Counted from the first letter of the stretch, positions 7,535-64,000 are shown. The stretch is DNA of 64,000 nt from Octopus vulgaris (GCA_951406725.2 OX597833.1:4216001-4280000), one strand, 5' to 3'. Numbers and translations are program-made. The notes: generated from the sequence alone by a model not told the origin.

Positions 7535-7595
7535 ATGAACTTTCTAATGGAGATTTCTTTACTTCTAACAAGTTTCTTGTTGTTGTTGCTGTTTG
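7535..7595 (+). CDS. Ig-receptor copy 1 exon 1, signal peptide
   Basis: ATG AAC TTT CTA ATG GAG...CTG TTT G|GTAAGT; hydrophobic Leu-rich peptide; phase 1 joins in frame to exon 2; identical in all four copies. Confidence 0.75.
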
Positions 7596-7681
7596 GTAAG
7601 TATTTGGAATTGTCTTCAGAAAGTATCGTCTCTCACCAATCTTCATCTTTTCCTCTTTTATACCTCTCATAACTGCTTGCT

Positions 7682-7888
7682 GAAGTAATTGAAGCCCTCG
7701 GACAGTTTACCTCAGCAAAAGATGAATTTATTTTTTGATAATGATGGAATACATGACATGGAAAAACGTTGGGTAAACGTCTTAAATGAACATGGATCAT
7801 ACTTTGATTAAATCAATCAGTTCTCTAACACTCGTGAATCATTTTATTGTTTCCTTTCAAATGCGACATTTCGTGTGAAACAACCTAA
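7682..7888 (+). mobile_element. Mariner remnant (3' end and TIR) in intron 1 of copy 1
   Basis: Matches the last ~200 bp of the element at 25260-26502; the rest is deleted. Confidence 0.75.
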
Positions 7889-8069
7889 TATGCATGTACG
7901 TAGGAATGCATGTATGCAAGCTCTCTCCCTCTATCTATCTATAAACATGTGTGTGTGTGTGTGTGTGCTATATTTAAAATTAAAGTTTAGATAAGAGTTG
8001 TAATGTCTCAATCATTTAAAAAATGAATTATACACACACACTCACACATACATATTAAAGATATATATA

Positions 8070-9611
8070 CCCTGCATCCTACATAATTGGGTGATTCAAC
8101 CGTCTCTCAATAAATAAATGTATATTCGTTGCAAATCAATTATTTTCCCACTGACTTTTGGCAACACCTTTCTGTGCACATTCTGTTAAAATAAATCAGA
8201 TCTGTGCAGTCAAAAGGAAGCAGCGGCTATTATCGTGTCCCAGCAAAATGTCTTCTGTCCCAAATTACACGACAGGTGCTCAATTTATGTGTGATTAGGG
8301 GTCAGAAACGTGATCTTACCTCGAAGGAGAAGTCTAACATCGTGTCAGAGCTGGGAAAAGGAAAAACAACCATAGAAATACCAAAAATAGTGGCAAAAGA
8401 TCACCGAACAGTGAAGGAATTTGTGCAGTCTCCTATTTCTGTTTGGTCGTGGGCAGATAATGGTAAGTTGAGAGCTGCTTCAAATCATACTTTGTCACAT
8501 GAGAAAAGTGAAGATGTGCGGAACTCAGGTCTGACAAGTAGAGAAGTCTTCAAATGCTGTGGCAGGGAAGACGTATCAAAAACTACCAGGTGTCGCCTCT
8601 TGAAGCAGGTAACCAGGAATGTTAAACCTGTTGCCAAGCCCCTTCTGAAGGCTGTTCATAAGCAGAAGAGACAGGAATGGACAGAAGAATATATGAAGAT
8701 AGATTTAGCAACAGTTCTGTTCACTGACAAATTTTGTGCTACCCTTGACGAACCAGATGGCTGGAGTAAAGGTCGGGTATCAATCAGAGGGAACCATCCT
8801 CATAGCTTGAGACGACAACAGGGGAGATGTGGCGTCATGTTTTGGGTTGGCATTGTTTGTGGTGTGATGGTCAGACCATGGAAAGTCCCAGATGGTATTA
8901 AGATGACATTGAAAACGTATGTTACCATCTTAAGGACAATTTCCAACCGTGGTTCCAAATACAAGAACCTTTTTTTAAGAAAAAGCTGGTCTTTATGCAA
9001 TATAATGCCTCATCTTATGCAGCCCAAAATTCTAAGGAATACCTGCAGCTATTAGGCTTTTCTTGAGGTCGTTTGACTTAAACCCAATTGAGAACCTGTA
9101 GAGTCTCCTGAAGAGGCACATTTACCAAGATGGACGGCAGTTTTCAAGTAAAGTTGCCCTCTGGGATGCTATTGTAGATGCTGCTCAGATCATGACACAA
9201 GAAGATATCATCACCTTGACAAATTCAATGGATCAGCGCGTAAGGAAGGTTACTGCGTGTGGAGGGCCATACACGAAACACTAGGAGCTGTATCATAACG
9301 CTGTGACTATTTGAATGCCAATGTATTATTATGTTTACCATTAAGTCCTTTTCTATTGAATTAATTAAATGACTGTTCTGACACAATTATCAGTTTTATT
9401 ATACTTGCCTAGTAATTTGTGACGGTGAAAATCTTGCCCAATCACAAATACGGCTGCCGTTTGTTGGCGTCTGCACAGATCTGATTTATTCTAACAGAAT
9501 GTGCACAGAGAGGTGTTGCCAACAGTCAATGGAAAAACAACAAGTTTTAGAATGAATATGGATTCATTTATTGAGAGAAGGTTCATTTGCCTAATAATGT
9601 GGGACACAGTG
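8070..9611 (+). mobile_element. Degenerate Tc1-like DNA transposon with long imperfect TIRs (intron 1, copy 1)
   Basis: TA-flanked; >150-bp imperfect inverted ends (e.g. GCACATTCTGTTAAAATAAATCAGATCTGTGCAG and its reverse complement). ORF 8204-9055 plus frameshifted continuation has decayed DDE motifs VLFTD, MFW, QYNA and DLNPIENL. Confidence 0.85.
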
Positions 9612-10409
9612 TATATACATACATATATAAGAAAAATCATTCAAACACAGAGATATGAAATCAGATGTCACCAGCAGTGACATAGGTGGATCGCAGGCGC
9701 AATAGCATTAAATAGCTATGAATTATATATTTGCACGAAGTGTAATGATGCTTAACAAGCATCTACCTGCTAGAAATAAGAGCTAAAGTCTTAAATTAAT
9801 CCACCGTACCACACCAAGATAACAGAGAAATATATATCTATATATACACACACACATATATATATTATTTTTTTTTACTTGTTGCAATCATTTGACTGTA
9901 ACCATGCTGGAGCACCACCTTTAGATGGACATGTTAACTCCAGGACTTATTGTTTGTAAGTCAAGTACTTATTCTATTGGTCTCTTTTGCCAAACCACTA
10001 AGTGGCAAGTCATAAACACACCAACATCGGTTGTCAAGCGATGGTGGGAGGATAAACACAGATATAAATAACAAACACATACATACTTATATATACAACA
10101 GGCTTCTTTCAGTTTCCATCTACCAAGTACACTCACAAGGCTTTCGTTGGCTTGAGTCTCTAGCAAAAGACACTTGCCCAAGGTTCCACGTAGTGGGACT
10201 GAACCCGGAACCTTGTGGTTGGGAAGCAAGCGTTTTATCACACAGCCGCTCCTGTGCTTATGTATATATATACACACATATACACACACACAAACACACA
10301 CATATACACATATGTATATACACAGACACAGTCACACACACACACACATATATATATACACATACACACACACATATATATATGTATATATCAATATATG
10401 CTACTCCAG

Positions 10410-61049: not shown

Positions 61050-62859
61050 TATATACATACATATATAAAAAAAAACATTCAAACACTGAGATTTGAAATC
61101 AGATGTCACCAGCAGTGACATAGGTGGATCGCAGGCGCAATAGCATTAAATAGCTATGAATTATTTATTTGCACGAAGTGTAATGATGCTTAACAAGCAT
61201 CTACCTGCTAGAAATAAGAGCTAAAGTCTTAAATTAATCCACCGTACAGCATCAAGATAACAGAGAAATATATATATATCTATATATACACGCACACATA
61301 TATATACAGAAACACATATATATATTACTTTTTTTTTACTTGCTGCAATCATTTGACTGTAGCCATGCTGGAGCACCACCTTTAGATGGACATGTTAACT
61401 CCAGGAATTATTGTTTGTAAGCCAAGTACTTATTCTATTGGTCTCTTTTGCCAAACCACTAAGTGGCGGGTCATAAACACACCAACATCGGTTGTCAAGC
61501 GATGGTGGGAGGATAAACACAGATATAAATAACAAACACATACATACTTATATATACAACAGGCTTCTTTCAGTTTCCGGCTATCATGTCCACTCACAAG
61601 GCTTTCGTTGGCCTGAGTCTCTAGCAAAAGACACTTGCCCAAGGTTCCACGTAGTGGGACTGAACCCGGAATCTTGTGGTTCGGAAGCAAGCGTTTTATC
61701 ACACAGCCGCTCCTGTGCTTATATATATATACACACATATATACACACACAAACACACACATATACACATATGTATATACACAGACACAGTCACACACAC
61801 ACATATATATATACACATACACTCACACACATACATAAATGTATATATCAATATATGCTCCTCCAGTACTCCGTCGGTTACGAAGACAAGGGTTCCAGTT
61901 GACCCAATCAACCGAACAGACTGCTCATGAAATTAACGTGCAAGTGGCAGAGTACACCACAGACTCGTGTACCCTTAACATATTCTCAGGGAGATTCAGC
62001 GTGACACGGATTGTGACAAGGTGACCCTTTGAAATACAGGTACAAGAGAAACAGGAAGAAAGAGTGAGAGTAAGCTGTGGTGATGATGTACAGCAGGGTT
62101 CACCACCTGCCCCTACCCGGAGCTTCGTGGAGCCTAAAATATTTACACTCAATAAACACTCATAACGCCCGGTCTGGGAATCGAAACCGCAAATCCACTG
62201 GCCTAACCACTGAGCCATTGCTCCTCCACATATAAGCATATATATATATATATATATATATATATACACACATGCACACGCTCATATATATATATATATA
62301 TATAGATAGATAGATAGATAGATAGATAGATAGAGAGAGAGAGAGAAATACAGAGAAAAAGGGAGTGAGAGGAAGATAGATGGTTACATGTACCCATACA
62401 TATTTGTATATAAGGGCACAGGGGTGGCTGTATGGAAAGAAGTTTACTTTCCAACCACATGGTTCTAAGTTCAGTCCCACTGCATGGCACTAATGGGCAA
62501 ATGTCCTCTCCTATAGCCTTGAGCTGACTGAAACCTTGTGAGGGGATTTGGTTGGCAGGAACTGAATGAAGCCCATTGTGTATGTGTGTGTGTGTGTGGC
62601 TTTGTGTCTGTGTTAGTTCACCATACCACTTGGCAACCGGTGTTGGTTTGTCTACATCTCCATAGCTTAGCAGATTGGCAAAAAGAGAGCGGTGAAATAA
62701 GTATGAGTCTTAAAAAATGCACTGGGATCAATTCATTGAACTAAAAGCTGTTCAAGTTGGTGCCCCAGCATGGCCACAGTCTAATGAATGCAAGAAGTAA
62801 AAAAAAAAAGTAGCCAGACATTCATGTTTATTAATCTTTCTGTCTTTCTATCATTTCAG

Positions 62860-63195
62860 GTGTTCCAGTTGTGAAATCTCAAACAGTGACATTCTCCATC
62901 TCTTCTTCTGCCAAAATTGGTGATTCTGCTCAGTTCTTCTGCAATGCCACCACCACAGTAATTCAGTACGATGCTAATTTCATGCATAATGACATCTGGA
63001 TTGCTGTAGCCATAGTTCCTGGTGTTTCAGGTCAAAGTGATCCCAATACTTCAGTCACTGGCTCAGCCACTGAGTCCTACTATAAGTATACAATCAGTTC
63101 TTTGTCTTGTTCTGACCGAGGGAATTACAGGTGTGAGGTGGTGAAAGAAGTTGGTTATGTATTGAAGAGTAACAGTGAGACACTTGATGTTCTGG
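62860..63195 (+). CDS. Ig-receptor copy 3 exon 2, Ig1
   Basis: 336 nt, TTTCAG| and |GTAAG; both canonical Cys and DRGNYRC retained; loops strongly divergent from copies 1 and 2. Confidence 0.88.
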
Positions 63196-63372
63196 GTAAG
63201 GATTACCTCTATCTACTCTCCCTTTTACTCCCCCTTTCTCTCTCTCCATTCTATCCCCGTCCTCCCCTCTCTCTCTCACATACAATGAAATTGTTGATGA
63301 TCCTTAACTTCCCTCACAATATTTATTGTATTTTAAATGTCCCTTTTTGTTCCCTTTTCTTTTTTCCTACAG

Positions 63373-63654
63373 GTCCAGCTGGAACTCCCGATCTGACGGC
63401 TCCTTCTGATAACCAAATTCTCAATGACAATGTCACCGTTTCTTGCGAGAGTAACGTTGGAAGTCCTGCACAGGAATTACACCTTTGTGTTGGCAATACC
63501 TGCGCTAAACCAAACCCAGCAGTTAAACAGGTCGATCAGTGCATTTTCACACAAACTGCAAGCCTAACATTTCAAGTCACCAAGACAACCAAGACGGCTA
63601 CATGTAGAGTGGGGTCAAGTTCTTTGGAAGATAAACAAACCTGGGAAGTTGACT
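63373..63654 (+). CDS. Ig-receptor copy 3 exon 3, Ig2 (intact); gene continues beyond the window
   Basis: 282 nt, phase 1-1, open frame GPAGTPDLT...QTWEVD|GTAAGT. Confidence 0.88.
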
Positions 63655-64000
63655 GTAAGTTGTCTGTTTTTCTTCTCTGTTGCTATTATTATTTCTTCAG
63701 AAATCACAGAAAACATGGTGAGTTGGTTGGATTCTGTGTAAAGAATGGATGGGAGGCAATGTGCCTTCCTCCAGAGATTGGCGTTTGGAGATTGATTGGA
63801 ACCAGTGGTCACTCAATGCTCAAGATTCTTGGATTAGGTGTGAAGGTGTGAAATGATGTTGCCAGAAAATTCTTGGAAGATTCTCACAAAGCAAGTCATT
63901 ACATCTGGGTTGAGAGAGGAGATGAGTGATGCAGCTAGAATGAGCATGGGAGACAGGATAGAAACATCTTGCCCAGGATCTCAATATCATGTAGTTTGTT

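Follow-up and report, generated by a model that had tools for sequence, protein, structure and literature searches.

The window, by which we mean the whole 64,000-nt stretch analysed (positions 1-64,000), matches Octopus vulgaris gene models and contains three tandem copies of a receptor gene and the start of an inverted one. Our preferred interpretation, to which we give about an even chance, is that it belongs to a tandem array whose members are short-tailed duplicates of a conserved single-pass receptor, and that these duplicates act like paired receptors or decoys in an arms race. We found no published description of this array in the literature.

A preliminary description of this DNA had proposed a chain of six exons repeated in units of about 17.5 and 32.8 kb. 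All six exons were found with AG/GT ends and are phase-1 in their intact lengths (61, 336, 282, 267, 114, and 114 nt), and the measured unit spacings, from exon-1 starts at 7535, 25015, and 57830, are 17,480 and 32,815 nt. Exon 1 (ATG..G followed by gtaag) has the same sequence in copies 1-3. Because two extra tail exons are present (exons 7 and 8 below), the gene has nine exons. The features are as follows:

1-678 and 781-1202, minus strand: inverted blocks, upstream region and part of intron 1
511..571, minus strand: inverted copy, signal-peptide exon (exon 1), with identity of 121/121 in the surrounding region
7535..7595, plus strand: copy 1 exon 1, signal peptide, 61 nt
11359..11694, plus strand: copy 1 exon 2, 336 nt, Ig1, V-like with a hypervariable GFCC' face; Pfam I-set/ig above cut-off
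11873..12155, plus strand: copy 1 exon 3, Ig2, 283 nt; one extra base causes a frameshift (copy 3 has 282 nt)
13658..13924, plus strand: copy 1 exon 4, Ig3, 267 nt; Pfam Ig_3 E 1e-4
15428..15541, plus strand: copy 1 exon 5, 114 nt, same as copy 2; P/S/T stalk (short-tail class)
16839..16950, plus strand: copy 1 exon 6, 112 nt (2 nt under the 114-nt form), TM plus basic juxtamembrane segment
19054..19196, plus strand: copy 1 last exon, homologous by tblastn to that of the parent but decayed
25015..25075, plus strand: copy 2 exon 1
29792..30127, plus strand: copy 2 exon 2, Ig1, frame open
30315..30880, plus strand: copy 2 exon 3, split by a ~280-nt insertion (30335-30615) starting with (AAT)n
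36062..36210, plus strand: copy 2 exon 4, only the 3' 149 nt left
41762..41875, plus strand: copy 2 exon 5, stalk
43330..43443, plus strand: copy 2 exon 6, TM, 114 nt; 38/39 residues as in O. sinensis LOC115221713
43730..43750, plus strand: copy 2 exon 7, 21-nt tail mini-exon with AG/GT ends, used in model P0001
48670..48757, plus strand: copy 2 exon 8, 88-nt tail exon; 27/30 residues as in P0072
51315..51456, plus strand: copy 2 last exon, AYDC and a stop in the family frame; P0072 ends in the same four residues
57830..57890, plus strand: copy 3 exon 1
62860..63195, plus strand: copy 3 exon 2, Ig1, the most divergent of the three (12-13% nt from copies 1 and 2)
63373..63654, plus strand: copy 3 exon 3, Ig2, 282 nt, open; 98% identity to the parent's Ig2

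Copy 1 is broken by two frameshifts and copy 2 by insertions, including a minus-strand LINE (RT-like frames 33623-36022) that sits in place of the 5' part of exon 4; copy 3 is intact as far as the window extends. TE insertions differ from copy to copy. With two window copies out of three broken, and copy 3 terminated within Ig3 in model P0001, the functional repertoire may be small. The inverted copy was correctly noticed before, but only its upstream region, exon 1, and part of intron 1 lie in the window; block 1-678 aligns without a break to copy 1 (96.5%), and the remaining exons would fall to the left, outside the window. Uncollapsed haplotypes of a conserved single-copy gene, an alternative named in the preliminary description, do not account for the copies: 10 Ig1 exons are annotated in O. 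vulgaris and O. sinensis carries matching copies (P0006/P0007, Ig1 95% identical; also P0072), more than such haplotypes could supply.

Remnants of all tail exons are still present among the window copies; exons 7 and 8 were found there in copy 2 only, and not in copy 1. Exon 7, which has one match in the window, is a degenerate counterpart of the parent's EPPEKPR and appears one base short of frame in P0002/P0072. The right end of the last exon of copy 1 (19196) is where contigs stop rather than a mapped 3' end; in the family frame this exon reads to a stop after VFDC, beyond which remnants of the parent's conserved module occur in other frames. The residue count of an earlier 458-aa long-tail model was arithmetically right, but the model is not the family form because the two tail exons were missed. 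That reading depends on the 2-nt exon-6 deletion private to copy 1 and on the absence of exons 7-8 from that copy, and it has a (CT)n microsatellite at its end; read in the family frame, the last exon has a stop after four codons (VFDC or AYDC).

The parent is an intact long-tailed gene annotated on the same chromosome as the window array. The preliminary description recognised no ortholog and considered the receptor lineage-specific, which did not hold up: the parent aligned over 76-96% of its length to sequences from Argonauta, P0013, a gastropod, and bivalves (E 3e-132 to 4e-14). The family is a conserved V-like/Ig/Ig receptor of molluscs and a nemertean, with members O. vulgaris CAI9737188.1, O. 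sinensis LOC115221682, Aplysia LOC101855768, Lottia LOTGIDRAFT_228656, Crassostrea gigas XP_011422692.1, and Lineus XP_064651548.1. Database labels for this lophotrochozoan three-Ig family include CADM-like, nectin-3-like, CEACAM5-like, peroxidasin-like, and others. Common to the family are the three-Ig/stalk/TM layout and the tail anchors EEPPEKP, D(D/N)(K/R)PRSR, and (M/L)PxV; the octopus parent keeps EEPPEKPR, DDKPRSRKP, and a C-terminal LPCV. A strict ITIM ([ILVS]xYxx[ILV]) lies ahead of the DDKPRSR anchor in 18/23 non-octopod homologues (a further three of the 26 sequences did not fit the anchor pattern but have the motif on visual inspection), and 19/23 have a second YxxI/V in the tail. 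By contrast, YxxI/L/V is absent from the tails of 5/5 octopod proteins, the parent included. These alignments indicate that both tyrosine motifs are ancestral in the family and were lost in octopods. The hits in other molluscs included nothing like this array, the maximum being two loci (Babylonia). Judged by these comparisons, the receptor gene belongs to a conserved mollusc/nemertean family and the array alone is octopus-specific. The idea of a birth-and-death recognition family stood, given the lineage-restricted tandem array, its broken members, and a recognition-type signature.

The three-Ig architecture already proposed agrees with Pfam Ig matches in Ig1 and with an AlphaFold model of the parent, in which all three domains are beta-sandwiches (pLDDT blocks 83-96) followed by a 38-residue P/S/T stalk with pLDDT under 50. 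Copy 1 Ig1 scored 25.4 bits for I-set (cut-off 23.7); Ig3 gave an Ig family match below cut-off, Ig2 gave no Ig family match in Pfam, and no C1-set match was obtained in the receptor. Because its V-set score was below cut-off (17.3; cut-off 26) and no C'' strand was assigned, Ig1 is a V/I intermediate. Its Cys46 and Cys110 are invariant, and Phe occupies the usual C-strand Trp position. Among the fold matches listed, the highest TMt values belonged to nectin-1 (4fmf, 0.68) and Necl-4 (5zo1, 0.65). The match 3alp (Z 13.8, rmsd 4.5, 266 aligned) was tied with SYG-2, nectin-3, and TCR V domains, and the tied matches also include DIP, SYG-1/2, Rst, and Necl-4.

Compared to the parent, the array copies have their own diverged signal peptide, stalk, and TM, and a tail shortened by a stop before the last module. 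Identity to the parent is 76-94% in Ig1, 90-98% in Ig2, and 87-92% in Ig3, but 58% in the stalk (19/33 aligned residues of the copy 2 translation) and 53% in the TM exon (19/36). The O. bimaculoides orthologue is identical at 137/149 positions from stalk to C-terminus, but reaches only 79-82% in Ig3. In a stalk/TM tree, the array copies group together (support 100/100), and the stem leading to them is 1.06 changes per column long; in the Ig3 tree, all Octopus tips are 0-0.11 long and no fork is supported. Contig X1 record 3 (1,623 nt) differs from copy 1 at 8/283 letters in exon 3 and 14/267 in exon 4, and cannot lie on exon 6, where its depth of 18.9 predicts a bin of ~5.0 compared to the 3.41 observed. 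Ig1 is a patchwork in which compatibility is greater between neighbouring columns than after shuffling (0.20 vs 0.42; p<0.001 in 3/3 windows). The near-identity of Ig2 and Ig3 despite a diverged stalk, TM, and signal peptide points to gene conversion, and we infer that ectodomain exons were probably traded between the two classes by gene conversion or unequal crossing-over. Because the root of the short-tail class is unplaced and the Ig3 forks are unsupported, a young duplication with a burst of stalk/TM change is also possible. Copies 1 and 2 differ at 2/287 positions over exons 1, 5, and 6, compared to 2.8% in non-coding sequence (p 0.012), so that these exons are conserved. The short-tail TM has a Lys close to its outer end where the parent has Gly (NIMIKSVIG); it falls just before the best 19-residue hydrophobic window and inside the best 21- and 23-residue windows. 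Paired receptors use a charge within the TM to bind an adaptor, a role for which this Lys is at most a candidate. The 51-residue short tail of P0072 contains no YxxL/I and no ITAM.

Among the window copies, Ig1 exons diverge by 5-13% compared to 2.6-3.8% for intron 1, and the Ig1 nonsynonymous rate exceeds the intron rate by a factor of 2.5-4.1 (p 0.003 to 4e-11); the residue changes in 31 codons, and 3 others are silent only. Positions with at least three states number 20/47 on the GFCC' face and 1/39 elsewhere in the comparison (p 8e-6), the face groups having been defined after the variability string was known. In strands C and F, 6/6 outward and 0/6 inward positions are variable, with orientation assigned by alternation from core residues rather than from coordinates. 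Thus, the Ig1 core and ABED face are fixed and the GFCC' face changes fast. In the parent, Ig1 holds 10/15 of the differences between O. vulgaris and O. sinensis (p 4e-4), with 10/111 Ig1 sites differing between two species whose split is put at ~2.5 million years (PMC10700109). Pairwise Ig1 dN/dS alone is modest (p 0.015, 0.044, and 0.137; neutral simulations p 0.006-0.145) for three pairs that are not mutually independent, and dS is somewhat raised in two pairs (0.068-0.075 vs ~0.036 in intron 1). We interpret the pattern as probable positive selection on the Ig1 ligand face. Conversion importing older Ig1 exons is another source that would also lift exon divergence over that of the intron. 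Fast change limited to a binding face is typical of vertebrate immune recognition genes. The preliminary description had missed both the two classes, which share an ectodomain but differ in stalk, TM, and tail, and the apparent confinement of selection to one Ig1 face.

Contigs from three studies have spliced exons crossing the predicted junctions; they attest splicing and give no expression level. Exon 4 is joined directly to exon 3 in contigs of 3/3 RNA-type runs, and RNA-type contigs start exactly at 11359, the left end of copy 1 exon 2. The closest expressed contig to copy 1 exon 3, X7 record 23, shows two differences and one gap, being one letter shorter, and is spliced to exon 4. Its depth explains exactly 71 letters of the exon-6 bin, that is, 68 plus the CAG common to the ends of exon 5 and intron 5. 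The array type is the sole Ig2 variant listed in X7. Last exons with a non-intronic 5' part occur in X1 record 7 and X3 record 21, both starting at the copy 1 acceptor. Both the short-tail and parent classes appear to be expressed. Two Ig1 contigs occur in X1, one with 12 and one with 20 differences from copy 1; their depths (9.8 and 8.47) together approximate that of the single parent-type contig (18.9). The X7 Ig1 combines a parent-like 'VLQYNA' stretch with a copy-1-like C' region (5 differences in 166 nt).

In the arms-race interpretation, the starting point is a receptor made up of V-like Ig1, Ig2, Ig3, a mucin-like stalk, TM, and tail. One long-tailed parent retains the conserved tail modules, the array copies are cut by a stop before the last one, and ectodomain exons would be exchanged between them by gene conversion or unequal crossing-over. 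A variable foreign ligand, such as a microbial or parasite adhesin, may bind the parent's Ig1, and the short-tailed membrane-bound look-alikes would bind the same kind of ligand without a signal or with a different one. Copies whose Ig1 is no longer important would decay, yet could still donate sequence. Opposing signalling, the core of a true paired receptor, stays putative because the octopod parent lacks the tyrosine motifs and the short tail lacks an ITAM. There is precedent in Xenopus CEACAM paired receptors, whose ligand domains are reported to be adjusted by gene conversion (PMC5112662).

Self/non-self or kin recognition, in which Ig1 variants bind like variants in trans during skin-sucker contact, haemocyte contact, or gamete encounters and frequency-dependent selection keeps diversity, is possible but doubtful. 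The GFCC' face is the one that nectins and related adhesion molecules use for trans binding, and nectin-1 and Necl-4 ectodomains have the top TM-scores among the listed folds (TMt 0.65-0.68). The two Ig1 contigs of X1 could be two very different alleles, but may be paralogues or come from pooled animals. Moreover, octopuses are solitary and do not fuse, and a short-tail class would be superfluous for homophilic recognition. Alr1 and Alr2 of Hydractinia bind homophilically by variant and sit among paralogues and pseudogenes (PMC9546547). We consider it unlikely that array copies serve mainly as templates from which germline gene conversion feeds Ig1 patches to one functional parent, with the products of the copies themselves being incidental. 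Mostly broken copies with open and diverse Ig1 exons, the Ig1 patchwork, and the mixed X7 Ig1 are all consistent with such templates, as are 3 of the 10 parent Ig1 sites differing between the two species, at which both residues also occur in array copies. At 5/10 sites, however, no array copy carries the O. sinensis residue, and point mutation therefore contributes too; short-tail transcripts are spliced, with an array-type Ig2 the only one listed in X7, and exons 1, 5, and 6 are conserved among copies.

Non-adaptive segmental duplication would leave redundant, decaying adhesion-gene copies, with relaxed constraint and mixed ancestry, or in part errors of assembly, behind the differences in Ig1. 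Frameshifts, LINE insertions, exon losses, the identity of Ig1 repeats 1 and 3 in P0002, and the raised dS in two pairs fit this reading, and long-read assemblies are weak at single-base indels in repeats. But relaxation cannot raise dN 2.5-4x above the intron rate or spare every inward position, the single-copy parent has the same Ig1 bias, a second species has matching copies, and the copies carry their own TE insertions. We regard this explanation as improbable, and largely refuted as regards diversification. Still less probable is a neural or developmental wiring code in which Ig1 variants mark cell types, as do DIP/Dpr or SYG/Kirre proteins. Octopus expanded other wiring families, and the tied fold matches include DIP, SYG-1/2, Rst, and Necl-4; wiring receptors, however, are usually conserved between close species, and here the copies decay fast and orthologous Ig1 domains already differ at 10/111 sites after ~2.5 million years.

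The nectins and CADMs resemble the octopus receptor in having a V-like and two further Ig domains and a single TM, and give the best overall ectodomain superposition with the predicted model, but identity is 14-18% and the tail differs. They are conserved few-copy genes with afadin-binding or FERM/PDZ motifs in their tails; the octopus family tail lacks afadin-binding and CADM-type FERM/PDZ motifs and ends in LPCV/MPxV with its own anchors, although this tail end is missing from the window copies. SIRPs have a V domain and two C1-set domains, and SIRP-alpha scored lower than the nectins (TMt 0.51). Hydractinia Alr is likewise an invertebrate cluster of V-like plus Ig single-pass genes with pseudogenes, some expressed, and with unusual Ig core residues (PMC9546547), as in octopus Ig1 with Phe for the C-strand Trp. 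Alr proteins, however, have an Fn3-like segment and many ITAM tails, whereas the octopus gene has a short P/S/T stalk. Alr is also marked by extreme allelic polymorphism and by variant-specific homophilic binding that controls histocompatibility; for the octopus, the nearest observation is the pair of X1 Ig1 contigs, which may be alleles or paralogues. Lacking an Fn3-like segment and ITAM, it was rejected as an Alr member, and there was no sign of orthology to Alr. Biomphalaria PTC2/GRC polymorphic transmembrane clusters offer a possible molluscan parallel: they encode hyperdiverse single-pass proteins tied to parasite resistance, which the abstract does not present as Ig proteins (PMC7494358).

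CEACAM identity was rejected as well. The CEACAM N-domain has no B-F disulfide, Ig1 has the invariant Cys46/Cys110, and the true homologues are lophotrochozoan; the CEA database match (E 2.7e-10) is a generic one in a set of 995 hits, most of them Ig-domain. SIRP and Siglec pairs are further vertebrate paired receptors besides those of the CEACAM1/CEACAM3 type. Homology of the octopus genes with paired receptors goes no further than the Ig fold, and paired receptors share a ligand but give opposing signals through an inhibitory member with ITIM/ITSM and an activating member with ITAM, whereas the octopus parent has no ITIM and the short tail no ITAM. Nevertheless, clustered genes, ligand domains homogenised by conversion, different tails, an N-terminal domain under diversifying selection, and rapid decay are described for vertebrate paired receptors (PMC5112662), as seems to be the case here. 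Paired receptors combine a near-identical ligand-binding region with a divergent TM and tail, and this combination is found in the octopus classes, with conversion as its probable source.

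Self-alignment of the window, which is full of SINEs, LINEs and microsatellites, resolved three direct copies of the receptor gene and one inverted fragment. The chain of six exons proposed in the preliminary description was confirmed in position and length, with canonical splice ends, and the exon 1 spacing of 17,480 and 32,815 nt agrees with its unit lengths of ~17.5 and ~32.8 kb. The inverted copy that it reported is present as a fragment, of which the window contains just exon 1, the sequence upstream of it and a portion of intron 1. The principal landmarks, together with repeats observed around them, are as follows.

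511-571, inverted: exon 1 of the inverted fragment
1750-5323: tandem duplicate of a 1.79-kb unit (98% identity), composed of mariner-like and other repeat fragments
7535, 25015 and 57830, forward: exon 1 of copies 1, 2 and 3
8150-9560, 25163-26297 and 57978-59113: stretches of intron 1 with fossil elements, a Tc1-like one in every copy (type assigned by eye, from translations)
22373-22925 and 55138-55687: incomplete, inverted second copy of the sequence preceding exon 1, closing each unit
23078-23969 and 55833-56725: segment in opposite orientation in the two units, near the unit-end duplicates
30335-30615: insertion in exon 3 of copy 2, resembling by eye the element at 44760-45400
32660-33572 and 43790-44270: two GC-rich minisatellites in copy 2 introns, with units of about 60 nt and 15 nt
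33623-36022 and 46223-48090, minus strand: two distinct LINEs inserted in copy 2, with long RT-like frames

A mariner-like fossil of intron 1, likewise typed by eye from translations, has been mostly lost from copy 1 and the inverted copy alike, and this shared deletion links the two. As assembled, copy 1 has one extra base in exon 3, is two bases short in exon 6 and has lost two tail exons; copy 2 carries an insertion within exon 3 and a LINE in place of the 5' part of exon 4; and the frame of copy 3 is open to the end of exon 3, where the window stops. Rare variants drop out of contigs, which bears on whether the two frameshifts of copy 1 are real or assembly errors. The 458-aa long-tailed protein previously put forward exists solely through the private lesions of this copy and was rejected as the family form. 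In copy 1 (16839-16950, 19054-19260), the 2-nt loss in exon 6 and the loss of exons 7-8 would return the reading to the old frame of the long-tailed class if exon 6 were spliced to the last exon. An ITIM-consensus SKYLTV would arise from this re-entered frame, which matters only if an assembly error accounts for the frameshift in exon 3. Uncollapsed haplotypes were rejected as an explanation of the copies, given that these number more than two, carry TE insertions of their own and have counterparts in a second species. We conclude that the array is real and that its earlier interpretation is partly revised.

With the Ig1 of copy 3 as the query, 234 candidates yielded seven protein matches, every one from O. 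vulgaris or O. sinensis. Six O. vulgaris models, all on a single 73.6-Mb contig, account for ten Ig1 exons, and three O. sinensis genes for three more. The automatic model P0001 (CAI9737182.1) joins exons from all three window copies. Since the public O. vulgaris models P0001 and P0002 merge several copies, annotation-based family counts miss the array. In P0002 (CAI9737184.1), the three fused repeats each pass from Ig2 directly to the stalk, a layout that suggests two-Ig array members; its Ig1 repeats 1 and 3 are identical, so that they either were duplicated very recently or were doubled in assembly. Each species also has one complete 465-aa receptor model of the long-tailed class (P0009 and P0003; CAI9737188.1 is that of O. 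vulgaris), hereafter the parent. Its adjacency to the array is suggested by consecutive accessions (CAI9737182-7188, 7185 excepted) on the same 73.6-Mb contig. The O. bimaculoides model P0011 contains two tandem Ig3 exons without Ig1 or Ig2, a hint that this species may also have a duplicate beside the parent.

Of 8,000 candidates scored with the parent as the query, 15 proteins matched, among them those of Argonauta, a gastropod and bivalves and the protein P0013, and in a representative library the parent gave 469 matches at E <= 0.001, 150 of which were listed. Named family members include Aplysia, Lottia, Haliotis, Patella, Pomacea, Crassostrea, Pinctada and the nemertean Lineus, and they have tail anchors in common. 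Thus, the receptor first described as lineage-specific and without a named orthologue is old, with a family in molluscs and a nemertean, and the array alone is new. Of 26 non-octopod homologues taken for a tail motif count, 23 fitted the anchor pattern and three rows were dropped; a strict ITIM precedes the anchor in 18 of the 23 and a second YxxI/L/V follows it in 19, and an ITIM is visible by eye in the three that missed the pattern. Neither motif occurs in any of five octopod proteins. The ITIM/ITSM-like orthologue in oysters, snails and Aplysia stands out as an unstudied receptor of inhibitory type. Behind the TM, a PPEKPR segment is near-invariant in the P0009 tail and its homologues and degenerate in the array class. 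PxxxPR is the motif bound by the SH3 domains of CIN85/CD2AP, and PPEKPR fits it. Pfam gave no match for Ig2 or the stalk and no meaningful TM family, the ESM Atlas returned generic Ig clusters alone (MUC18, nectin-3, CADM4), and matches in a PDB sequence search were generic.

The array-type C-terminus was supplied by P0072 (O. sinensis LOC115221713), one of two matches among ten candidates. It consists of the stalk, the TM, two small exons, which correspond to 43730-43750 and 48670-48757 of window copy 2, and a last exon halting after AYDC. Past this stop, the array last exon retains remnants of the parent's final module in shifted frames. Because the stop is common to copies 1 and 2 and to O. 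sinensis, the tail lesion would be older than the amplification. The dead frame past the stop (19085-19150, 51345-51410) reads EEGPLHMELTTDD and aligns with gastropod EDGLxYAELQFDN; it has His at the ITIM Tyr position and is nearer the ancestral motif than is SSMEV of the living parent. Between array and parent, Ig2 is 90-98% and Ig3 87-92% identical, against 19/33 residues for the stalk and 19/36 for the TM exon; the signal peptides also differ. The O. bimaculoides orthologue shows the opposite pattern relative to the parent, with 137/149 residues identical from stalk to end and 79-82% identity in Ig3; by published dating, that species split off ~34 million years ago, and O. vulgaris and O. 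sinensis separated 2.5 million years ago (PMC10700109). A stalk/TM tree recovered the array clade at 100/100 on a stem of 1.06, its point of attachment being without resolution, and the Ig3 tree is a star (tips 0-0.11) with no supported fork. The simplest reading of these sequences is an old duplication whose exons 2-4 were homogenised later; alternatively, a young duplicate may have undergone a burst of change in the stalk and TM. P0010 (O. sinensis XP_036366804.1) has an array-type signal peptide and an Ig1 closer to the O. vulgaris parent (94% identity) than to the O. sinensis parent (90%), and is likely a recent conversion.

Part of exons 2-3 was present in 20 of 24 listed runs from eight studies, the RNA status of the runs being a guess. 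Four of the 24 were mapped onto 11300-19300, with exon 1 outside, and junctions were read from the contig pieces listed. A contig joins 12155 to 13658 in all three RNA-type runs, which come from three studies and carry two organism labels, and in run X3 exon 2 is also joined to exon 3. In X15, a DNA-like run, contigs run on through intron ends. No listed piece over 11300-19300 directly gave the exon 1-2, 4-5 or 6-7-8-9 junctions. Record 3 of run X1 is parent-type, as judged from its variants and no cover of exon 6. Record 23 of run X7 is array-type; its exon 3 has two differences from copy 1 and is one letter shorter, a length that fits an open frame, and its exon 4 is three letters longer, so that the record represents another copy or allele. 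The depth of this record matches the bin depths listed for exons 3 and 4. For the exon-6 bin it yields 71.0 letters, the value predicted by an exon 5-6 splice, and we infer such a splice in a piece outside those listed. The array-type last exon starts at its acceptor with non-intronic letters upstream in X1 (2 differences) and X3 (7). These parent-type and array-type spliced contigs therefore imply that both classes appear to be transcribed and spliced, at the level of the class rather than window copy 1 itself.

Pairwise differences between the window copies are 5.1, 12.8 and 11.9% in the Ig1 exon, 2.6, 3.5 and 3.8% in intron 1 (microsatellites masked) and 2.5-3.2% in the Ig2 exon. Ig1 nonsynonymous divergence is 2.5, 4.1 and 3.4 times the intron rate. 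Ig1 dN/dS (NG86) is 10, 2.4 and 1.9 (one-sided p 0.015, 0.044 and 0.137), the first value depending on half a synonymous change. Simulations under neutrality gave p 0.006-0.145, varying with the pair and transition bias. The residue is changed in 31 codons, and 3 have a silent change alone. We infer that Ig1 has probably been under positive selection. Diversification is limited to one face of the domain. When the 12 distinct sequences among 13 Ig1 were mapped on the parent's AlphaFold model (28-sequence alignment), at least three states occurred at 20 of the 47 positions that make up BC, C, C', C'D, F and FG and at 1 of the 39 that make up A', B, D, E and EF, groups that were drawn once variability was seen. 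At alternate positions of strands C and F, outward residues are all variable and inward residues all fixed, orientation being taken from the alternation itself. The parent's Ig1 has three N-glycan sequons, two of which (N47, N85) fall on the conserved side, in strands B and D. Ten of the 15 differences between the parents of the two species fall in Ig1. The 34 informative Ig1 columns form 561 pairs, of which 210 are incompatible. Compatibility is higher between neighbours than after shuffling, as would be expected from recombination; multi-base mutations could contribute. A single-sequence fold of copy 3 Ig1 was poor (pLDDT 47), and a predicted complex of two parent Ig1-Ig2 copies, made without the alignment, gave a score (0.01) that weighs neither way.

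Because the ligand face changes fast in both the parent and the tail-shortened copies, the simplest account would be an arms race in which a foreign binder, a varying external ligand, engages that face, and short-tailed copies would serve as decoys or alternative signallers; we give this account an even chance. Signalling is the weak point of the decoy reading, since the octopod parent lacks an ITIM and the short tail an ITAM. The array TM has a Lys at its outer end, which may or may not be buried. Variant-specific self recognition is unlikely in our estimation, and marginally less likely is a role of the copies as donor cassettes, which would be compatible both with it and with the arms race. 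Neutral decay is improbable, and a wiring code slightly more so. We also consider, on a par with self recognition, that live and dead Ig1 cassettes might by conversion keep rewriting the binding face of a conserved receptor and its short-tailed partners, giving each animal its own variant set. If so, such per-animal variants could recognise pathogens, or self versus another octopus, and would be a candidate molecular basis of cephalopod self/non-self recognition.

To our knowledge, almost no variable receptors have been named in cephalopod immune recognition. The top matches in the octopus and mollusc Ig, ITIM, CEACAM and self-recognition literature contain no account of the array or family, and five locus and accession identifiers occur in no paper in a literature search; gene-family tables in supplements may nonetheless include the loci. 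Neither array nor family is mentioned in the available portions of a 2026 immune diversification review (PMC13428168) or of the O. vulgaris genome paper, in which 'immunoglobulin' occurs 0 times (PMC10700109). The locus bears the signature of vertebrate paired/decoy receptors, namely a shared ectodomain, divergent tail, GFCC' selection and copy decay. The signature was reached independently, and its starting point was a conserved ITIM-type gene of molluscs that has no name of its own and is wrongly annotated. The locus is a concrete candidate for octopus recognition of pathogens, parasites or other individuals.

Membership of the CEACAM, nectin/CADM and Alr families failed on the tested features, and the missing Alr structure in the fold lists carries no weight as evidence. 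The fold resembles nectin/Necl, with which SYG/Kirre, DIP and antigen-receptor V domains tie. Oyster NCAM1 has two ITIMs and an Fn3 domain, and because of the latter is unlike the octopus receptor in layout (PMC11841013), and the likeness to snail PTC2 is one of functional analogy alone (PMC7494358). The octopus array is similar in layout to the Alr complex (PMC9546547) and would work like CEACAM-type paired/decoy clusters (PMC5112662).
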